From K189A clade bacterium (GTDB lineage Bacteria; Pseudomonadota; Gammaproteobacteria; Pseudomonadales; Azotimanducaceae), in assembly GCA_018607725.1 (NCBI GenBank), contig JABBAY010000223.1, forward strand, positions 3,367 to 67,366: 64,000 bases of DNA, in the 5' to 3' direction. How positions within the stretch are numbered: position 1 is the stretch's first letter; the number at the start of each line of letters is the position of its first letter. This document shows, one piece after another, positions 19,145 to 53,754 of this stretch. The position numbers and the translations under genes are program-made. The notes below the pieces were generated by a model. The model did not search any database. It saw nothing but the letters and a program-made list of their open reading frames with translations, and had not been told where the DNA came from.

Positions 19145-22645
<3,501 letters not shown>

Positions 22646-22649
<4 letters not shown>

Positions 22650-23746
22650 AGCTTCATTGGCATAACAACATAAATTGAATCTTCCGCACTTGGGTCCTCC
22701 AACAACGCACTGCTATTGGCATCATGCAGGGTAATCTTTACCGTATCGCTATCAATAACGCCTAAAACATCTAGCACATAGCCGACGTTGAAACCGACCT
22801 CAAGCTCAGCCCCCTGGTAGTCCACGGACACCGTTTCCTCTGCCTCCTCTTGTTCCGGGTTATTTGCCGATAGCTGCAAAACACCTGAAGACAGGTTAAC
22901 GCGAATTCCACGGAATTTTTCATTTGACAATATCGCGGTGCGATTCAGTGCCTGCCGCAGCTCTAATTTATCCGCCACGATAAGCTTATCGCCATTTTTG
23001 GGAATTACGCGATCATAATCTGGAAACCGCCCGTCTACCAACTTGGTTGTCAGCACAAAGTCTGCGGACTCTGCCATCAAATAATTAGCTCCTATGGCAA
23101 TCCCTATATCACCTTCGACTTCGTTTAATAAGCGCTGCAATTCAAGAACGCCCTTTCTGGGCAAGATCACTTGCCGACTATCTGCGCTTGCACCTTCGAG
23201 CTTAAGCGTGCTCATTGCCAACCGGTGACCATCCGTCGCGACAGTCTTGACGTAATCTCCACCCATCTCAATCAACATACCATTGAGGAAATACCGAACA
23301 TCTTGCTGCGCCATGGCGAAAGCTGTTCTGTCCAACAACCGCTTCAAGGACTTGCTGTCGATTCTAGTGGACATTTCCGCGAGTGATTTCTCTACTGTCG
23401 GAAAGTCTTCCGCGGGCAGCGTCGACAGTGTCGAGCGAAAACGACCGGCTTTAACCGTCAACCGTTGCCCCACTAATATCAATTCGATCTCAGCCTTGTC
23501 TGGCAACTCGCGACAAATATCCATTAACTTTCGCGCCGGCACAGTAATCTCGCCGCTTTCACCTTCGATTAACGGTACTCGACCCACCATCTCCACTTCG
23601 AGATCGGTGCCCGTTAAGGACAATACGTTGCCCTCAACCTGCAACAATACATTCGACAACACTGGCAAAGTCTGACGTCGTTCGACGACGCCGGCAACTT
23701 GCTGCAGCGGTTTCAACAGCGCTTCTCTACTAACCCGTAACTTCAT
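22646..23746 (-). CDS. dnaN: DNA polymerase III beta sliding clamp (canonical copy, recF-proximal)
   Basis: 366 aa. It keeps the E. coli/Pseudomonas-type signatures TVATDGHRLA, KLVDGRFPDY, ILSNEKFRGIR, NNPEQEEAEE, GFNVGYVLD and the C-terminal YVVMPMKL. ATGA overlap with recF. Confidence 0.95.
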
Positions 23747-23798
23747 GGAATTTCCTATAGTGAGTGCTCACATTACACACAGGGCCTATATTACAGGC

Positions 23799-24902
23799 TT
23801 ATAAAATCATGGGGCTTACCACGAAACGTGATAAGCTCTCGTCAGGACCTGCCAGCAACATGGCACTATTGCCATCTATAAACGTCATTTGAACCCTATC
23901 GCCATCGATCGCCGATAGCGCATCAATGATGTAGTCCACATTAAAGCCAATCTTTAAACCCGCTCCATCGTAATCAACCGGAACATTTTCTTCAGCCTCT
24001 TCCTGCAATGGGTTGTTCGCGTAAATACCCAAGTTACCCGGCGTAAGCTCCAGACGGATATTTCGATAGGTCTCGTTCGCCAGGATTGCAGTTCTCGTTA
24101 ATGCGTCCTTAATTTCACGCCTGTTACCCACCACGATGACATCGCCCCCCGCCGGGATGGCTCTTTCATAATCCGGGTATGTGGCATCAATTAATTTTGT
24201 CACCAAACAGAATTGACGGGACACGACCCGCAGGTGATTTCTTGAAAATTGAACCAGTAGTTCCTGTGTGTCATCTTTAACCATTCGTAGCATTTCGACA
24301 ACGCCTTTTCTGGGGACGATGAACTGCTGCGTGTTACTCACCGCATAAGCACCTGGCAGATGGTTAACAGCAAGCCTTTGGCCGTTAGTTGCCACCGTCG
24401 TCAACTGGTTTGCGCCTGTCACAAACAACATTCCATTAAAAAAATACCGAACATCCTGATGTCCCATGGCGAAACTGGTCTTATCCAGAAGGCGCTTAAA
24501 ATCCGCTGGCGCGAGCCTCAGTTCGACCAGGACTGGATCCATCTCGACGGTGGGAAAATCTATAATCTCCAAGGTTGCCAGGTGCGACCGAAAGCGACCG
24601 CTGACAATGCTCATTCGCTCGCCCTCAAGGGAACAGACCAACGGTGCTGTACCGGGCAAGCTGCGACAAATTTCACTAAATTTACGCGCTGGTATTGTCA
24701 CAGCACCATCGACAGTACTTCTAATACTGTCCAGGCTTGCGCTTAACTCAACTTCTAGATCCGTGCCGACAAGCGTCAGCCGACCCTTCTCTACAGAGAT
24801 CATCAGGTTCGCAAGCACCGGCAACGTCTGCCGGCGCTCCACCACACCAGACACAAATTGCAAAGGCTCGAGCAGCGCATCACGGTCTATCTCAAACTTC
24901 AT
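23799..24902 (-). CDS. divergent second beta sliding-clamp paralogue (dnaA-proximal)
   Basis: 367 aa, full three-domain length. It shares SGVVERRQTLPVL, GTDLEVE, HQDVRYF.NGML, VPRKGV, NNPLQEEAEE and GFNVDYIID with DnaN. It differs at TVATNGQRLA, KLIDATYPDYERAIP, ILANETYRNIR and the C-terminal FVVSPMIL. AAGGA RBS, 18 nt after the dnaA stop. Confidence 0.88.
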   Translation of the reverse strand: MKFEIDRDALLEPLQFVSGVVERRQTLPVLANLMISVEKGRLTLVGTDLEVELSASLDSIRSTVDGAVTIPARKFSEICRSLPGTAPLVCSLEGERMSIVSGRFRSHLATLEIIDFPTVEMDPVLVELRLAPADFKRLLDKTSFAMGHQDVRYFFNGMLFVTGANQLTTVATNGQRLAVNHLPGAYAVSNTQQFIVPRKGVVEMLRMVKDDTQELLVQFSRNHLRVVSRQFCLVTKLIDATYPDYERAIPAGGDVIVVGNRREIKDALTRTAILANETYRNIRLELTPGNLGIYANNPLQEEAEENVPVDYDGAGLKIGFNVDYIIDALSAIDGDRVQMTFIDGNSAMLLAGPDESLSRFVVSPMIL

Positions 24903-24920
24903 GGCAGTCCTTATCGACCC

Positions 24921-26294
24921 CTAAGCCGTCAATATTCGCAGCAAATTCGTATAGTCATCTCGAATATCTTGATGACTCTCGCGCAATTCTTCGACTTTTC
25001 GCACAGCGTGCAAGACCGTCGTATGATCTCGCCCGCCGAAAGCATCGCCAATCTCTGGCAAACTGTGGTTTGTCAGCTCCTTGGCCAGCGCCATAGCCAC
25101 CTGTCGTGGCCGCGCGATGGACCGAGTACGGCGTTTCGAATGCAACTCAGCAATTCTAATCTTATAATAATCCGCAACCGTCTTTTGAATATTTTCAATC
25201 CCCACCTGACGGTCCTGCAGCGAGATCAAGTCCTTTAGTGACTCCTTGACCTGCTCAACACTAATCTCTCGACCTGTAAAGTTCGCATTCGCAATCACCC
25301 GACGTAGCGCACCTTCCAACTCACGAACATTTGACCGAATTCTCTCAGCAATAAAAAATGCTGCGTCATGGGGCACATATACTCTCTCGACCTCTGCCTT
25401 CTTCAACAAAATAGCCACCCTTGTTTCTAAATCAGGCGGCTCGACAGTCGCAGTCATCCCCCACATAAAACGACTCTTAAGACGCTCTTCGAGGCCTTGA
25501 ATTTCCTTCGGATAACGATCACAGGTCAGCACTATCTGGCTACCATTTTCCTGTAACCGATTGAATACATGGAAAAATTCTTCCTGGGATTTCATGCCTT
25601 TGGCCAGAAACTGAATATCATCCATCAGCAACACATCCACAGTACGGTAATACTGGGTAAACTCGGGCATAGTGCCATGTTCAATCGCCCTGACCATATC
25701 CTCCATAAATCGCTGCGAATACATATACGCGACTTTTAAATTGGGATGCTTTTCAAGGATCGCGTTACCCACCGCATGCATCAGGTGGGTCTTACCCAGC
25801 CCTACGCCACCATATAGCAGTAAACACTTATAGGTGACACCGACGTTTTCTGAAACCTGCACAGCCGCAGCCCTGGCCAACTCATTCGAGCGCCCAGCGA
25901 CGAAGGTGTCAAAGGTGAATTCTCGGTTCAGTTTCAACAGGGGATAGAAGCTTTCTCGGACTGCAAAGCTGTTATCAGCTACCCGCGCATTACCATTCGA
26001 TAAGCCAGTCGATGAGCCGTTCAATAAGCCATTCGTCCTATCTGCGCTCGGAAGTCCCGTTGACGAACCAATGCGCAGCGTCACACCACCGGAACCATTT
26101 TGTTCAACCAGTTCTTGAATACGAACCATGAACATGTCGCTGACTTGATCTCTGATATATTTATTGGGTGCGAGAAGACGTAAGTCTTTTGTATCTAATT
26201 CGGCCTGCAAAGGCTTTATCCAGGTATTGAATTGCTGCGCGGTCAGCTCACTTTCGAGACTGTGCAAGCATTTTTGCCAAATTGTCGCCCCCAC
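24921..26294 (-). CDS. dnaA: chromosomal replication initiator DnaA
   Basis: [13 protein letters not shown] Walker A, LLMDDIQF Walker B, and C-terminal DNA-binding helix [14 protein letters not shown] start with GGAGGG RBS. Confidence 0.97.
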
Positions 26295-26498
26295 ACACCC
26301 TCCGAGTTATCGTATGTCTCTGAAAATATTCAGATATCTCGCTAAATTTGCTTGTTCATCGCAACATTTTTAGCGCTAGCCTGCAGCCGACTCGAATAGT
26401 AACGCCATTTGCCTTCTCACGCCAACAGTTCCGAACAATTAGATACAAATAAAATGCCTTAAAAATCAATAATTTATCCTTAAAACCAGTAGACAACC

Positions 26499-26529
26499 TG
26501 TGCGTAACCTGTGCATAACCTGTGGACAA
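26499..26529 (-). promoter_or_regulatory. three DnaA-box-like 9-mers phased at 11 bp
   Basis: TGTGCGTAA (26499), TGTGCATAA (26510) and TGTGGACAA (26521). Their reverse complements are TTACGCACA, TTATGCACA and TTGTCCACA, each 0-1 mismatch from TTATNCACA. Each is preceded by AACC. Confidence 0.6.
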
Positions 26530-26559
26530 AAACGTAAATATTACAGACTGCCTCTGCCC

Positions 26560-26568
26560 TGTGGATAA
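26560..26568 (-). promoter_or_regulatory. perfect DnaA box
   Basis: TGTGGATAA, the reverse complement of TTATCCACA. Confidence 0.75.
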
Positions 26569-26588
26569 CTCGGCTATTTCCACACAGC

Positions 26589-26597
26589 TTATCCACA
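26589..26597 (+). promoter_or_regulatory. perfect DnaA box
   Basis: TTATCCACA on the plus strand, convergent with the box at 26560 and 20 bp from it. Confidence 0.75.
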
Positions 26598-26676
26598 GCT
26601 TACCCGCAGGTCTAAGGCCAACTGTTAACACCCTTTGATCCCCTACAACTGATTGATATAAAACACTAAATACGAC

Positions 26677-26685
26677 TAATCCACA
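26677..26685 (+). promoter_or_regulatory. DnaA box, one mismatch
   Basis: TAATCCACA, followed by the GC-rich GGCAGC and then the AT-rich block. Confidence 0.55.
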
Positions 26686-48124: not shown

Positions 48125-49243
48125 ATGCGCAAAACAATATTGCTCGTCTGCTTGCTCGTTAGCTTCGGCGCCCTATCTGGTTGTGCTGAAAACGACACTA
48201 TAAAGGGGTCAGAAAACAGCACGAATCGGTCAGATAAAACCTACCATTGGCGGATGGTGACTACCTGGCCAAAAAACCTGCCGGGCCTTGGCGTCGCACC
48301 CGTGCGCATGGCAGAAATGATTTCGACGATGAGCAATGGTCGATTGAACATCACAGTTTATGGCGCGGGTGAGCTGGTGCCAGCCATGGGTGTCTTCGAT
48401 GCGGTATCTCTGGGTAATGTCGAGCTGGGCCATGGTGCGGCGTACTACTGGAAGGGCAAGCTACCAGCGGCGTCGTTTTTTACTGCGGTGCCGTTTGGGT
48501 TGACGGCCCAGGAAATGAATGGCTGGTTGTTACACGGAGGCGGTATGGCGCTGTGGGAAGAACTGTATGCGCCGTTTAACCTGATTCCCCTGGCAGGGGG
48601 CAATACCGGTGTGCAGATGGCTGGTTGGTTTAATAAGGAAATCAATTCTCTCGAGGACCTACAAGGACTGAAGATGCGTATTCCCGGCCTCGGAGGTGAA
48701 GTTTTTCAAAAAGCGGGTGGCACTGCCGTCAACATTCCCGGTGGTGAAATCTATACCAGTTTGCAGACCGGGACGATTGATGCGACAGAATGGGTCGGCC
48801 CTTACAACGACCTAGCTTTTGGCTTACATCAGGTGGCCAAGTACTATTACTATCCTGGTTGGCAGGAGCCGGGTCCGACGTTGGAAATTATCGTCAATGC
48901 AGAAGCGATGAATAGTCTGCCAAATGACTTGCAGGAAATCGTCAGAGTCGCCAGTCGTGCCATGAATGACGATATGCTCGCCGAATTTACCACTCGAAAT
49001 AATGCGGCTCTGGAGGAGCTGGTGAATAAACACCATGTCCAGTTGCGCCGCCTACCGGACGATGTATTGGCTAAATTGAAAGTCATATCAGCGGAGGTGG
49101 TCGAGGGGATCGCCGAAGACGACGAGCTGGCGCAGCGAATTTACCAGTCCTATGATCGTTACCGAACTCAGGTGATGAGCTATCATGAGATCTCCGAACG
49201 CGCCTACATCAATGCCCGGGCGGCGCAACCGTTGGCGCAATAA
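48125..49243 (+). CDS. TRAP transporter solute-binding subunit (DctP-type), lipoprotein
   Basis: Lipobox LSGC after the signal peptide. 372-aa periplasmic binding-protein sequence next to TRAP permease genes. Confidence 0.8.
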   Translation: MRKTILLVCLLVSFGALSGCAENDTIKGSENSTNRSDKTYHWRMVTTWPKNLPGLGVAPVRMAEMISTMSNGRLNITVYGAGELVPAMGVFDAVSLGNVELGHGAAYYWKGKLPAASFFTAVPFGLTAQEMNGWLLHGGGMALWEELYAPFNLIPLAGGNTGVQMAGWFNKEINSLEDLQGLKMRIPGLGGEVFQKAGGTAVNIPGGEIYTSLQTGTIDATEWVGPYNDLAFGLHQVAKYYYYPGWQEPGPTLEIIVNAEAMNSLPNDLQEIVRVASRAMNDDMLAEFTTRNNAALEELVNKHHVQLRRLPDDVLAKLKVISAEVVEGIAEDDELAQRIYQSYDRYRTQVMSYHEISERAYINARAAQPLAQ

Positions 49244-49249
49244 GCAATA

Positions 49250-50617
49250 TTACTTAGGAAATAGCACGCTGGGCAGCCAAGTCGCCAGACCTGGCTGCCA
49301 GGTCAGCAGCACCAGCAGTAATATCTGCATCATGATAAAAGGCACCACGCCCCGGTAGATCTGCAATGTGCTGATGGACAATGGCGCAACCCCACGTAAA
49401 TAAAACAGCGCAAATCCAAAAGGGGGTGTCAGAAAGGACGTTTGCAGGTTCACTGCGATCATGATACCGAGCCAGATCGGATCAACGCCCATCGCCATGA
49501 GGATAGGACCGACAATCGGTATCACAACAAAGGTAATCTCGATAAAGTCGAGAATAAACCCGAGCAAAAAAATCACTAGCATAACAATGGCGGTAGCGCC
49601 GATTACGCCGCCGGGCATCTCGGCAAATAATGCCTGCACCAGTTCATCACCGCCAAAACCTCTGAAGACTAACGAGAACAATGAGGCACCGACGAGGATG
49701 AAAAACACCATGGCTGTGGTTCGCGTGGTTGACCGGCCGATGTCCATAAACTGCGGTCCATCCACGTGTCGGCTCCATAGTGCCAGGATGAAAGCGCCTA
49801 GAGCCCCCACCCCTGCTGCCTCTGTCGGTGTAGCGATGCCAGTTAAAATCGAGCCCAGCACAGATAGGATGAGTAATAACGGTGGCAGGATACTGTAGAC
49901 AATTTCTTGCAACGTAACCGCCGCGGTGGCAACAGGCGGGGCGCGATGGGGTGACAGTATGGCGGTTCCCATAATATAGAGTAGATAAAAGGTCACTAAG
50001 CACAAGCCAGGCAATATCGCCCCGGCAAATAGATCACCCACCGAGACAGTTTGTGGGTTGAAGATGCCCATGTTGAGCTGTGCCTGTTGATAGGCATTGC
50101 CCAGCACGTCGCCAAGCAGCACCAGGGCAATGGACGGTGGAATGATTTGACCCAGGGTGCCCGTTGCGCAGATAGTGCCCGTGGCAAGCACTGGGTCATA
50201 GTTTGCCTTGAGCATGCTGGGCAGCGCCATCAAGCCCATCGTCACGACTGTGGCACCGACGATACCTGTGCTCGCGGCCATCAACATACCGACAACGGTG
50301 ACGGCGATGCCCAGGCCACCGGGTAAGTGACCGAACAACTTGCTCATGGTCTCCAGTAGTCGTTCGGCGATCTTCGAGCGTTCCAGAATGACGCCCATCA
50401 GAATAAAGAGCGGCACCGCCATCAATGTCTGATTCGTCATAATACCGAACAGGCGATTCGGTGTGGCTGATAGCAGGGCCGGATTAAAGTCACCGGTGAT
50501 AATGCCGATGCCCGCGGCTAACAGGGCGGTTCCGGCCAGCGTGATTGCTACGGGATAGCCGAGTAGCAGAAAGACGAAAGCTGCGACAAACATGAGTAAA
50601 CCAGCATATTCAGCCAT
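49250..50617 (-). CDS. TRAP transporter large permease subunit (DctM-type)
   Basis: 455-aa polytopic membrane protein that overlaps the small-subunit gene by 8 nt. Confidence 0.85.
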   Translation of the reverse strand: MAEYAGLLMFVAAFVFLLLGYPVAITLAGTALLAAGIGIITGDFNPALLSATPNRLFGIMTNQTLMAVPLFILMGVILERSKIAERLLETMSKLFGHLPGGLGIAVTVVGMLMAASTGIVGATVVTMGLMALPSMLKANYDPVLATGTICATGTLGQIIPPSIALVLLGDVLGNAYQQAQLNMGIFNPQTVSVGDLFAGAILPGLCLVTFYLLYIMGTAILSPHRAPPVATAAVTLQEIVYSILPPLLLILSVLGSILTGIATPTEAAGVGALGAFILALWSRHVDGPQFMDIGRSTTRTTAMVFFILVGASLFSLVFRGFGGDELVQALFAEMPGGVIGATAIVMLVIFLLGFILDFIEITFVVIPIVGPILMAMGVDPIWLGIMIAVNLQTSFLTPPFGFALFYLRGVAPLSISTLQIYRGVVPFIMMQILLLVLLTWQPGLATWLPSVLFPK

Positions 50618-51188
50618 CGATGTTAGAGACTCTCGGCAGTGGTGGGCGTTGGGTTGGCGCGACTAACGTTTGTATCAGGCGGGCAATTTCGGCGATGCCC
50701 TGGATGCCCAAGAGCCCCGCCATCAGTGGTATCAGCCCCTTCATCAGGTACATACCAGGCAAGCCCCCAGGCTCTGCGGATCCCTCCTGTAATCGCCAGG
50801 ATAAAGAGACATAGTCCAGGCTGGTGACAAAGATAAAAAGGCTTAAGGGCAGCAGAAAGACGATGGCGCCTAAAAGGTCAACGATCGCCTGGCCGCGCTG
50901 GGACAAGCGTTGATAGATAATGTCGACTCGCACATGGGCATCTGCGCGCAAGGTATAGGCGATGCCCAGCATAAAAATACTGGCATGAATGTAGAGTATG
51001 AGTTCCGTGATCGGAATCAGGCCGACATTCAGGGCGTAGCGTGCCACCACGACCACGCAGGTGAGCAACATCATCACGAAGGTTAGCGGCGCGATGAGAT
51101 GGCCGGTCCAGTCGGCAACGCGGTTGAAGGTCATCAGGAAACGAAGCAATGGATGCACTCGGTTTTTGCGAATAAATGAGTTTAGCAC
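50610..51188 (-). CDS. TRAP transporter small permease subunit (DctQ-type)
   Basis: 192 aa with four TM segments, immediately upstream of the large subunit and overlapping it. Confidence 0.8.
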   Translation of the reverse strand: MLNSFIRKNRVHPLLRFLMTFNRVADWTGHLIAPLTFVMMLLTCVVVVARYALNVGLIPITELILYIHASIFMLGIAYTLRADAHVRVDIIYQRLSQRGQAIVDLLGAIVFLLPLSLFIFVTSLDYVSLSWRLQEGSAEPGGLPGMYLMKGLIPLMAGLLGIQGIAEIARLIQTLVAPTQRPPLPRVSNIDG

Positions 51189-52809: not shown

Positions 52810-53754
52810 TTACCAATAGTGAAGAAAGATACCCACAAAAATCCCCAGCCCGCACCATTGGTTGTTGAGAAATGCTGCGAAGCAGCCGTCCCTGTCGCGG
52901 TTGCGGATCAGGTACTGTTGGTAAATAAACAGGCCGGCGGCACAGCCGAGTCCGAGCATATACCAGGTGCTCAAGCCCACAGGTTCAGCCGCAGCGTACA
53001 TGATGATCAGAAACAGTACCTGGAGTGTTGCGATAGCGGCCTTATCCAGTTCCGCAAACAAAATGGCTGAGGATTTCAAGCCCAATAGGAGGTCATCATT
53101 TCTGTCTACCATGGCATATTCCGTATCAAAGGCCACCGTCCAGATAATGTTGGCGATCATCAATAGCCCCGCAACCTGGGGTACTTCGCCGGTGACGGCT
53201 GAGAATGCCATGAGGATGCCAAAAGAAAAGGCCAGGCCAAGGATAGCCTGGGGAATATAGGTGTAGCGTTTCATAAACGGGTAGATCAAGGCAGTTATCG
53301 CGCCGCCACAAGCCAGCAGAACGGTGAGCCAGTTGGTTGTCAGAACCAAGATCAGGGCTGCAAAGAGTAATATCGCCGTGAAACACAGAGCCGCCATCAC
53401 AGTGACCTGGCCGAGCACCAGGGGCCGGTTGCGAGTTCGTTCGACACTGCCATCGATATCCCGGTCAACCACATCATTGACGATACAGCCCGCTGATCGT
53501 GTGAACAGGGTGCCGAGCGTAAATACGATGAGCAAATGCCAGCCCGGAAAGCCTTCTGCCGCGATCCACAGAGCCCACAAGGTGGGCCACAGTAAAAGAA
53601 AGGTGCCGATTGGCCGATCGAGTCGGGCCAAGCGCAACAATGGCGATAGCATTGGCCAGCGCTGGTTAAGATAAATTCTAAGTCGCGAGACCGAATCTGT
53701 CAGGCGGGCGCGTAATCTCTGTAAAGCTATAATCGATGGCATGTTATGGGGCAC
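52810..53754 (-). CDS. ubiA: 4-hydroxybenzoate polyprenyltransferase
   Basis: RLDRPIGTFLLLWPTLWALWIA, NDVVDRDIDGSVERTRNRPL and YDTEYAMVDRNDD motifs. The exact start is uncertain; candidates are 53754 and 53742. Confidence 0.9.
   Translation of the reverse strand: MPHNMPSIIALQRLRARLTDSVSRLRIYLNQRWPMLSPLLRLARLDRPIGTFLLLWPTLWALWIAAEGFPGWHLLIVFTLGTLFTRSAGCIVNDVVDRDIDGSVERTRNRPLVLGQVTVMAALCFTAILLFAALILVLTTNWLTVLLACGGAITALIYPFMKRYTYIPQAILGLAFSFGILMAFSAVTGEVPQVAGLLMIANIIWTVAFDTEYAMVDRNDDLLLGLKSSAILFAELDKAAIATLQVLFLIIMYAAAEPVGLSTWYMLGLGCAAGLFIYQQYLIRNRDRDGCFAAFLNNQWCGLGIFVGIFLHYW

Follow-up and report, generated by a model that had tools for sequence, protein, structure and literature searches.

The window analysed here, a 64-kb stretch of DNA from a K189A clade bacterium, contains two adjacent genes for the beta sliding clamp. 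One of them, dnaN (22646..23746, minus strand, 366 aa), is an open reading frame (ORF) that encodes a clamp with a pocket of the E. coli type. The other, which we call dnaN' (23799..24902, minus strand, stop codon included), is an intact ORF of 367 aa with an ATG start. We consider it fairly probable that dnaN' encodes a functional second beta clamp that originated by tandem duplication, was retained throughout a clade and serves altered or narrower clients beside the generalist dnaN.

A 2024 review describes the clamp-binding pocket as two subsites (PMC11139829). Subsite I is formed by R152, L155, T172, G174, H175, R176, L177, P242, R246, V247, V360 and M362. Subsite II is formed by H175, N320, Y323, V344, M362, P363, M364 and R365. 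According to the same review, H175 and M362 bridge the two subsites. We defined the pocket as the 18 residues listed in this review. Sequences were aligned with MAFFT to E. coli beta, which was verified against PDB 1mmi (100% match), and E. coli numbering is used unless stated otherwise. Five of the listed residues are changed in dnaN' of the window (L155F, H175Q, V247A, M362S and R365I), so that the canonical 18-residue pocket is not present. The 13 others are kept, including T172, G174, R176, L177, P242, N320, Y323, P363 and M364. Two further changes, at 173 and 241, fall directly beside listed pocket residues in the sequence. H175 is known to contact the delta subunit, MutL and a Pol III peptide (PMC11621423).

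An earlier note on this DNA had quoted the strings TVATNGQRLA, YPDYERAIP, GFNVDYIID and FVVSPMIL from dnaN', and TVATDGHRLA, FPDYDRVIP, GFNVGYVLD and YVVMPMKL from the canonical copy. All are present in the corresponding ORFs. The substitutions deduced from them (D173N, H175Q, F241Y, V247A, Y359F, M362S and R365I, with N320 and Y323 kept) are recovered in the MAFFT alignment. The alignment and a structure model also place these substitutions in or against the published pocket, as the note had proposed. Its description of H175 and M362 as a gate stands as regards the bridging of the two subsites, whereas the gate role of M362 is contested in the review (PMC11139829). Four substitutions were absent from the first list, L155F, F278Y, G280N and S346A. 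On the minus strand, the codon of F155 in subsite I is located at 24438..24440, and the codons AAC GGC CAA, read directly as N173-G174-Q175 (D173-G174-H175 in E. coli), at 24378..24386. The codons of residues Y242 to A248 of dnaN' (YPDYERA; F241 to V247 in E. coli) are at 24159..24179. Those of Y279-R280-N281 (F278-R279-G280 in E. coli), in the loop after the dimer-interface helix, are at 24060..24068. The codon of A347 (S346 in E. coli) is at 23862..23864 and those of S363-P364-M365-I366 (M362-P363-M364-R365 in E. coli) are at 23805..23816.

By its fold, its domains and its DNA-contact residues, dnaN' belongs to the DnaN family; it is in the cleft that it departs from the canonical form. Its match to PDB clamps extends over the whole protein (residues 1-366, E = 5e-103), and it is 49% identical to the neighbouring dnaN. 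Comparison with the P. aeruginosa clamp (PDB 6ams) gives bit scores of 348 for dnaN' and 486 for the canonical copy. Three Pfam clamp domains (PF00712, PF02767 and PF02768; about 366 aa) are found in all close relatives of dnaN'. Its AlphaFold2 model has a predicted local distance difference test (pLDDT) value of 89.7 and a predicted template modelling (pTM) score of 0.86. Search for structural similarities using Foldseek aligned this model with 6ams over 367 columns, with a TM score of 0.97 and a root mean square deviation (rmsd) of 1.3 A. Full-length TM scores with the P. aeruginosa and E. coli (1mmi) clamps are 0.94-0.97, for rmsd values of 1.3-1.9 A. Because the model superposes over its full length, the aligned positions match structural positions.

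A one-genome-per-species scan identified 77 relevant loci, all in metagenome-assembled genomes (MAGs) labelled Pseudomonadales, OM182 clade, HTCC2089 or Candidatus Azotimanducaceae. The order dnaA-dnaN'-dnaN-recF-gyrB is observed in all 72 species-representative loci that reach far enough (72/72), and the same tandem is found in every individual genomic context looked up. Residue statistics were calculated on 74 distinct dnaN' and 73 distinct dnaN sequences, some counts being made over 83 sequences per class. N173, Q175 and S362 are 100% fixed in the 74 dnaN' sequences, and D173, H175 and M362 are 100% fixed in canonical dnaN. Fixation in dnaN' is at least 97% for F155 (97%), Y241 (99%), A247 (99%) and Y278; canonical dnaN has L155 (97%), F241 (96%) and V247 (100%). 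Positions 155, 241, 247, 278, 280 and 283 are at least 90% fixed within each class, with residues that differ between the classes. Position 346 is an alanine or a proline in all dnaN' and a serine in 99% of dnaN. At position 365, K is found in 83/83 dnaN, whereas among the 83 dnaN' the residue is M, V or I in 81 and K in the other two. The possibility that the substitutions are idiosyncratic to one genome was rejected, as the same residues are fixed across the clade. Nine positions are fixed but different between the two classes, 4 among the 18 pocket positions (155, 175, 247 and 362) and 5 among the 348 positions elsewhere (Fisher p = 4.5e-4). The concentration of class-separating substitutions in the pocket exceeds chance.

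The signature extends to the 120 best database matches to dnaN', down to 50% identity. They carry F155, N173, Q175, Y241, A247 and Y278, as well as A or P at 346, S362 and, at 365, a hydrophobic residue; exceptions are occasional and concern single positions. A wider sample was made of 150 representatives of the nearest 50%-identity clusters, taken from 1.84 billion proteins. H175 is absent from only 9 of these 150 representatives, all dnaN'-type sequences, and M362 is kept in 138 of them.

dnaN' is under strong purifying selection. The ratio of nonsynonymous to synonymous substitution rates (dN/dS, NG86 method) in pairs with unsaturated dS is 0.03-0.13 for dnaN' and 0.007-0.06 for dnaN. One very close pair, with few substitutions, gave 0.39 for dnaN' and 0.20 for dnaN. 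No truncation was found among the dnaN' copies lying inside their contigs. The view of the earlier note that the gene is not a decaying pseudogene is borne out by these values, which denote purifying rather than relaxed selection; together with the intactness of dnaN' at all loci, they rule out a pseudogene or relaxed selection. Amino-acid change in dnaN' is about 2.6 times faster than in dnaN and roughly at the pace of recF. The pocket is the most conserved region of the protein, with 14/18 positions at least 95% conserved versus 52/348 elsewhere (p = 2e-6). In canonical dnaN, conservation reaches at least 95% at each of the 18 pocket positions. The class-specific residues stay 97-100% fixed although dnaN' sequences diverge to about 42% identity.

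The residues of the basic channel lining and of DNA contact (R24, Q149, R152, R73, R80, K198, R205 and R269) are conserved in 66 to 83 of the 83 dnaN' sequences, the exceptions being mostly K for R. For the dimer interface, we considered the core residues I78, I272 and L273 and the pairing of K74, R96, R103 and R105 with E298-E304. K74 is invariant in dnaN', and I272, L273, E300 and E304 are conserved in its consensus. The hydrophobic dimer core (I272/L273) and E300-E304 are retained. E298 is present in 100% of dnaN and never in dnaN', where positions 103 and 105 are also variable. Throughout the clade, both copies have F104/S106 in place of F106 (about 24585-24596 for dnaN' of the window and about 23432-23443 for dnaN). 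The interface-core phenylalanine of other clamps thus lies two residues further upstream, a lineage-specific rearrangement of the dimer-interface strand.

In E. coli, R105 forms ion pairs with E301 and with E303 across the dimer interface (PMC11139829). In a deep subclade (loci L051, L052, L058, L064, L077, L074, L079, L080, L069, L070 and L073), dnaN' has the motifs AFES, EFES and RFES. The dnaN' sequences with R105E, 14 distinct ones in this subclade, all have E301Q and some of them also E303T/I. The co-resident dnaN keeps R or K at 105, an acidic residue at 301 (D301 in exactly those genomes) and an acidic residue at 303. This charge covariation faintly hints at dnaN' homodimers. We read dnaN' as a functional and probably homodimeric second clamp whose client specificity would be altered.

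Positions 278 and 280 of dnaN' are changed and fixed and position 277 has lost its conservation, all in the loop after the interface helix. This 277-280 loop would be the second delta-contact site, reportedly described in Jeruzalmi 2001. In PMC11139829, only a '5-residue loop' is given. If the assignment is right, the loading or unloading behaviour of dnaN' may differ.

The strand at 103-106 also informs on the origin of the gene. Its motif is R-F-[RK]-S in both copies, and [RK]-S-[RK]-F/Y in the listed classes of other clamps. The single-copy clamp of a syntenic relative with the order dnaA-dnaN-recF-gyrB (P0139; L172 5001-6110) shares the F104/S106 swap, with P-F-W-S at 103-106. It has N173, Y241, Y278 and K365 and keeps H175, V247 and M362. 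From these residues, P0139 looks like a pre-duplication or sister state. Among the clamps compared, the motif is common to both copies and P0139 only, which points to an in-lineage tandem duplication. The simplest history would be one tandem duplication in the ancestor of the clade, with a burst of cleft change in the upstream copy that was followed by stasis. In 73% of neighbour-joining bootstraps, the sequences that bear the signature group as one clade, and database matches place dnaN' nearest to gammaproteobacterial clamps. The GC content of dnaN' and its GC content at third codon positions (GC3) equal those of the neighbouring genes; this, and the F104/S106 swap common to the resident dnaN, led us to reject recent horizontal transfer. 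A phage origin was also rejected, as nothing in IMG/VR is closer than 35% identity and no phage relative there carries the dnaN' signature pattern.

We propose that dnaN was duplicated in tandem in the ancestor of a marine Pseudomonadales clade (OM182 / Candidatus Azotimanducaceae MAGs) and that dnaN' has held its place between dnaA and dnaN ever since, in all members examined. Its cleft has been rebuilt once and then frozen (L155F, D173N, H175Q, F241Y, V247A, F278Y, G280N, S346A/P, M362S and K/R365 to M/V/I), and the sister copy dnaN has kept the universal cleft. dnaN' would form its own homodimeric ring on DNA and would recruit a narrower or different client set than dnaN. The docking motif of these clients probably still opens with a Gln-type anchor, which is expected because N320, Y323, P363 and M364 are kept. 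The difference would probably reside in the part of the motif that spans the H175/M362 bridge and occupies subsite I. Subsite I is reshaped by L155F and V247A, the bridge becomes small and polar (Q175 and S362) and position 365 turns from basic to hydrophobic. The ring would still bind a linear motif, with other residue preferences. The clamp hub would then be split between a generalist, dnaN, and a specialist, dnaN'. The about 2.6-fold faster rate of dnaN' fits fewer partner constraints. The idea of the earlier note of a functional ring with altered partner or ligand specificity is supported by these comparisons, and we infer that the binding specificity of dnaN' is altered.

Several points weigh against this proposal. 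The change in specificity is deduced from sequence alone. The clamp pocket tolerates diverse motifs (PMC11139829). Moreover, M362S is found in a clamp of another lineage that is the sole dnaN between dnaA and recF (P0142; L170/L171 5001-6104). This clamp keeps H175 and R365 and ends with VVSPSRL; S362 is also found in P0209 and P0230. As S362 occurs in P0142, a sole and presumably all-purpose clamp, the combination of substitutions is distinctive and no single one is diagnostic. Given this clamp and the tolerance of the pocket, dnaN' might bind ordinary motifs with affinities that are merely shifted. Subsite I also receives the delta-subunit plug (PMC11139829), so that an altered cleft raises the question of how dnaN' would load. 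The interface covariation may correspond to a single evolutionary event and is therefore weak evidence for homodimers. The loci were ascertained with a dnaN'-derived pattern, and lineages having lost dnaN' would be missed. Finally, the tree was built by neighbour joining only and does not resolve how the dnaN' clade branches with respect to that of the resident dnaN.

A stronger version of the proposal, which we regard as possible but tentative, is a true two-clamp system. dnaN' would then be a dedicated ring with a private docking motif, possibly with its own loading and unloading, serving one pathway. DnaA inactivation, RecF-dependent gap repair or a specialised polymerase would be candidates for this pathway. 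A distinct loading or unloading behaviour is considered because subsite I and the 277-280 loop, the two presumed delta-contact regions, are both changed. Such a system, if true, would be a bacterial counterpart of the division of labour between PCNA and 9-1-1.

dnaN' might alternatively be an inhibitor-insensitive back-up. It would serve the clients of dnaN, and its altered cleft would escape antagonists directed at the cleft. These could be cyclic peptides of the griselimycin or mycoplanecin type, or pocket-plugging proteins of toxin or phage nature. Replication would then continue while dnaN is blocked, as with GriR in Streptomyces. There is a precedent for this, since the dnaN paralogue griR is located inside the griselimycin gene cluster (PMC11621423). 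Change of the bridging methionine to leucine (M375L in Rickettsia) lowers griselimycin affinity (PMC11621423), and dnaN' has replaced this methionine as well as H175 and R365. GriR-type self-resistance clamps, which are dnaN paralogues of griselimycin or mycoplanecin gene clusters, resemble dnaN' in being extra clamps beside a housekeeping one, with changes expected to lower cyclic-peptide binding (PMC11621423). However, GriR lies within the biosynthetic cluster of the producer, whereas dnaN' is part of the core dnaA cluster of a whole clade. Pfam scans of the window ORFs revealed core housekeeping genes only, with no nonribosomal peptide synthetase (NRPS) or polyketide synthase (PKS), and related loci have the same core synteny. 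No cluster for a clamp-targeting compound adjoins dnaN', and a self-resistance gene in a biosynthetic cluster was rejected on this basis. In addition, dnaN' has a fixed core position in all 72 species-level loci instead of a patchy distribution, and its pocket residues are frozen where an arms race would predict diversification. The changes strike residues used by delta and by the Pol III motif, which makes an unchanged service of clients doubtful, and its faster overall evolution agrees better with a reduced number of clients than with the full set. We therefore consider a back-up role unlikely.

We give a comparably low probability to a heterodimer of dnaN' and dnaN, that is, to an asymmetric ring in which one cleft is canonical and the other altered. 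It might load via its canonical cleft yet unload poorly, or hold two different clients at once. In E. coli, single-cleft heterodimers load and replicate normally and support viability, their unloading being severely impaired (PMC2685083; PMC3022782). The R-F-[RK]-S interface strand, I272/L273 and E300-E304 are common to both copies, which would be compatible with mixed rings. The genes are adjacent, with no terminator-like site found between them, in a scan that yielded fewer sites than shuffled controls. Against the heterodimer, the changes that compensate E105 in the deep subclade (E301Q, E303T/I) occur in dnaN' itself, and the acidic residues 301 and 303 of dnaN would repel E105. The strict separation of the two classes at E298 argues in the same direction.

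It is rather improbable that dnaN' is a regulatory clamp or a decoy, acting in initiation control as a platform for RecF or for an Hda-like factor that inactivates DnaA, or off DNA as a buffer for one particular clamp-binding protein, rather than as a processivity factor. dnaN' is directly downstream of dnaA in every genome, with an 18-nt spacer in the window. In E. coli, DnaA is inactivated by complexes of the clamp with Hda (PMC5397184). RecF, whose gene belongs to the same cluster, binds DnaN although it has no recognisable motif (PMC10287930). However, the position of dnaN' follows simply from the tandem duplication of dnaN, and the retained channel and DNA-contact residues argue for a ring loaded on DNA rather than for a decoy.

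Finally, a redundant duplicate drifting toward loss with neutral pocket changes is hardly credible: the 2.6-fold faster rate and the lack of phenotype of a dnaN-2 deletion in Bacillus anthracis (PMC3290774) would agree with it, but dnaN' is intact at every locus examined, its dN/dS is 0.03-0.13, its class residues are 97-100% fixed across divergence to ~42% identity and its pocket exceeds the remainder of the sequence in conservation.

As compared to canonical DnaN (1mmi and 6ams), the favoured second clamp with altered clients shares the three-domain fold, the DNA-contact and channel residues, the hydrophobic dimer core and 13/18 pocket residues. It differs by the replacement of the bridge residues H175 and M362 and of L155, V247 and R365. 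The flanking positions 173, 241, 278, 280 and 346 are also replaced and are fixed across the paralogue clade. In addition, dnaN' is accompanied by a canonical copy, relative to which its evolution is about 2.6 times faster.

DnaN-2 of B. anthracis and other Bacillus species is likewise the product of a second dnaN paralogue on the chromosome, with about 40% similarity to the main clamp and an unexplained role (PMC3290774). It can support replication and appears deficient in repair functions (PMC3290774). The likeness with dnaN' is limited to the existence of a second clamp: DnaN-2 is found in Firmicutes, whereas dnaN' is gammaproteobacterial and in tandem at the origin. The gammaproteobacterial character of the nearest clamps and the motif common to the neighbouring dnaN argue for a duplication independent of DnaN-2, no DnaN-2 sequence being included in the comparison.

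Outside bacteria, specialised clamps are exemplified by the 9-1-1 checkpoint clamp and by the three distinct PCNA subunits of Sulfolobus. In these systems too, paralogues share out the role of the clamp hub, each recruiting clients of its own. This is an analogy only, as they are PCNA-type trimers of another family, with dedicated loaders or heterotrimers. As a possible clue to clients, a fusion of the Rosetta-stone type was sought; the only fused match, P0130 (615 aa), is a laboratory GFP-DnaN construct that has entered a public protein collection through sequencing data, and was discarded. No prior description of a tandem dnaN in these bacteria was found in the open-access and preprint literature searched.

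In bacteria, replication and repair have the beta clamp as their central hub. The clamp is also an antibiotic target, with a cleft that ranks among the best-conserved sites of protein-protein interaction known. Here, in at least 72 species, two clamps are encoded side by side, one with the universal cleft and one with a cleft rebuilt at the bridging residues and then frozen. If dnaN' has private clients, it would show how bacteria partition traffic on the clamp. The dnaN/dnaN' pair would then be ready-made for finding which cleft residues set motif specificity and inhibitor sensitivity. The distinction is also relevant for annotation, as both genes bear one name in databases, merely 'DNA polymerase III subunit beta'.

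In the window, the cluster is encoded on the minus strand in the order dnaA-dnaN'-dnaN-recF-gyrB. dnaA, its first gene, is located at 24921..26294 (minus strand; ORF, tblastn and Pfam-annotated contexts). recF (21555..22649, minus strand) overlaps the stop codon of dnaN and is followed by gyrB (19145..21592, minus strand), both being identified from their ORFs and from related contexts. rnpA, yidD, yidC and mnmE are on the opposite strand. A Shine-Dalgarno-like AAGGA is found 7 nt before the ATG of dnaN' in the 18-nt dnaA-dnaN' spacer (24903..24920, minus strand). AGGAAA precedes the ATG of dnaN in the 52-nt dnaN'-dnaN spacer (23747..23798, minus strand). The latter spacer measures roughly 25-520 nt in related loci. 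In neither spacer of the window was a terminator-like site found; the promoter and terminator scan of the locus was uninformative, as it gave fewer sites than shuffled controls. In one related locus, recF is called as a truncated ORF of 252 aa (L007 7645-8403), versus 365 aa in the near-identical L008 (7306-8403). This truncation is likely an assembly or frameshift artefact.

Upstream of dnaA, five DnaA-box-like 9-mers with at most one mismatch to TTATCCACA are found at 26510..26685. They are located between dnaA and rpmH-rnpA, at the minimum of the GC skew, the cumulative skew being lowest at about 26-28 kb. Over the whole window, DnaA-box-like matches are not above chance (19 versus 12.3 expected) and only their clustering stands out. 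The five-box cluster is probably oriC or the dnaA promoter region. Together with the GC-skew minimum, it identifies the chromosomal origin region. A 91-aa ORF (26356-26631, minus strand) overlaps the box cluster, and in related loci, too, small unannotated ORFs are called ahead of dnaA (79 aa in L001 and 112 aa in L004). These small ORFs of the origin region are probably spurious.

The remainder of the window is composed of housekeeping genes according to the Pfam scans, including the atp operon, glmUS, uvrD, recG, spoT, trkAH and def-fmt. A cytochrome P450 gene (51451-52785, plus strand) adjoins a gene for a UbiA-family prenyltransferase (52810-53754, minus strand), and a TRAP transporter (48125-51188) is located beside this pair.

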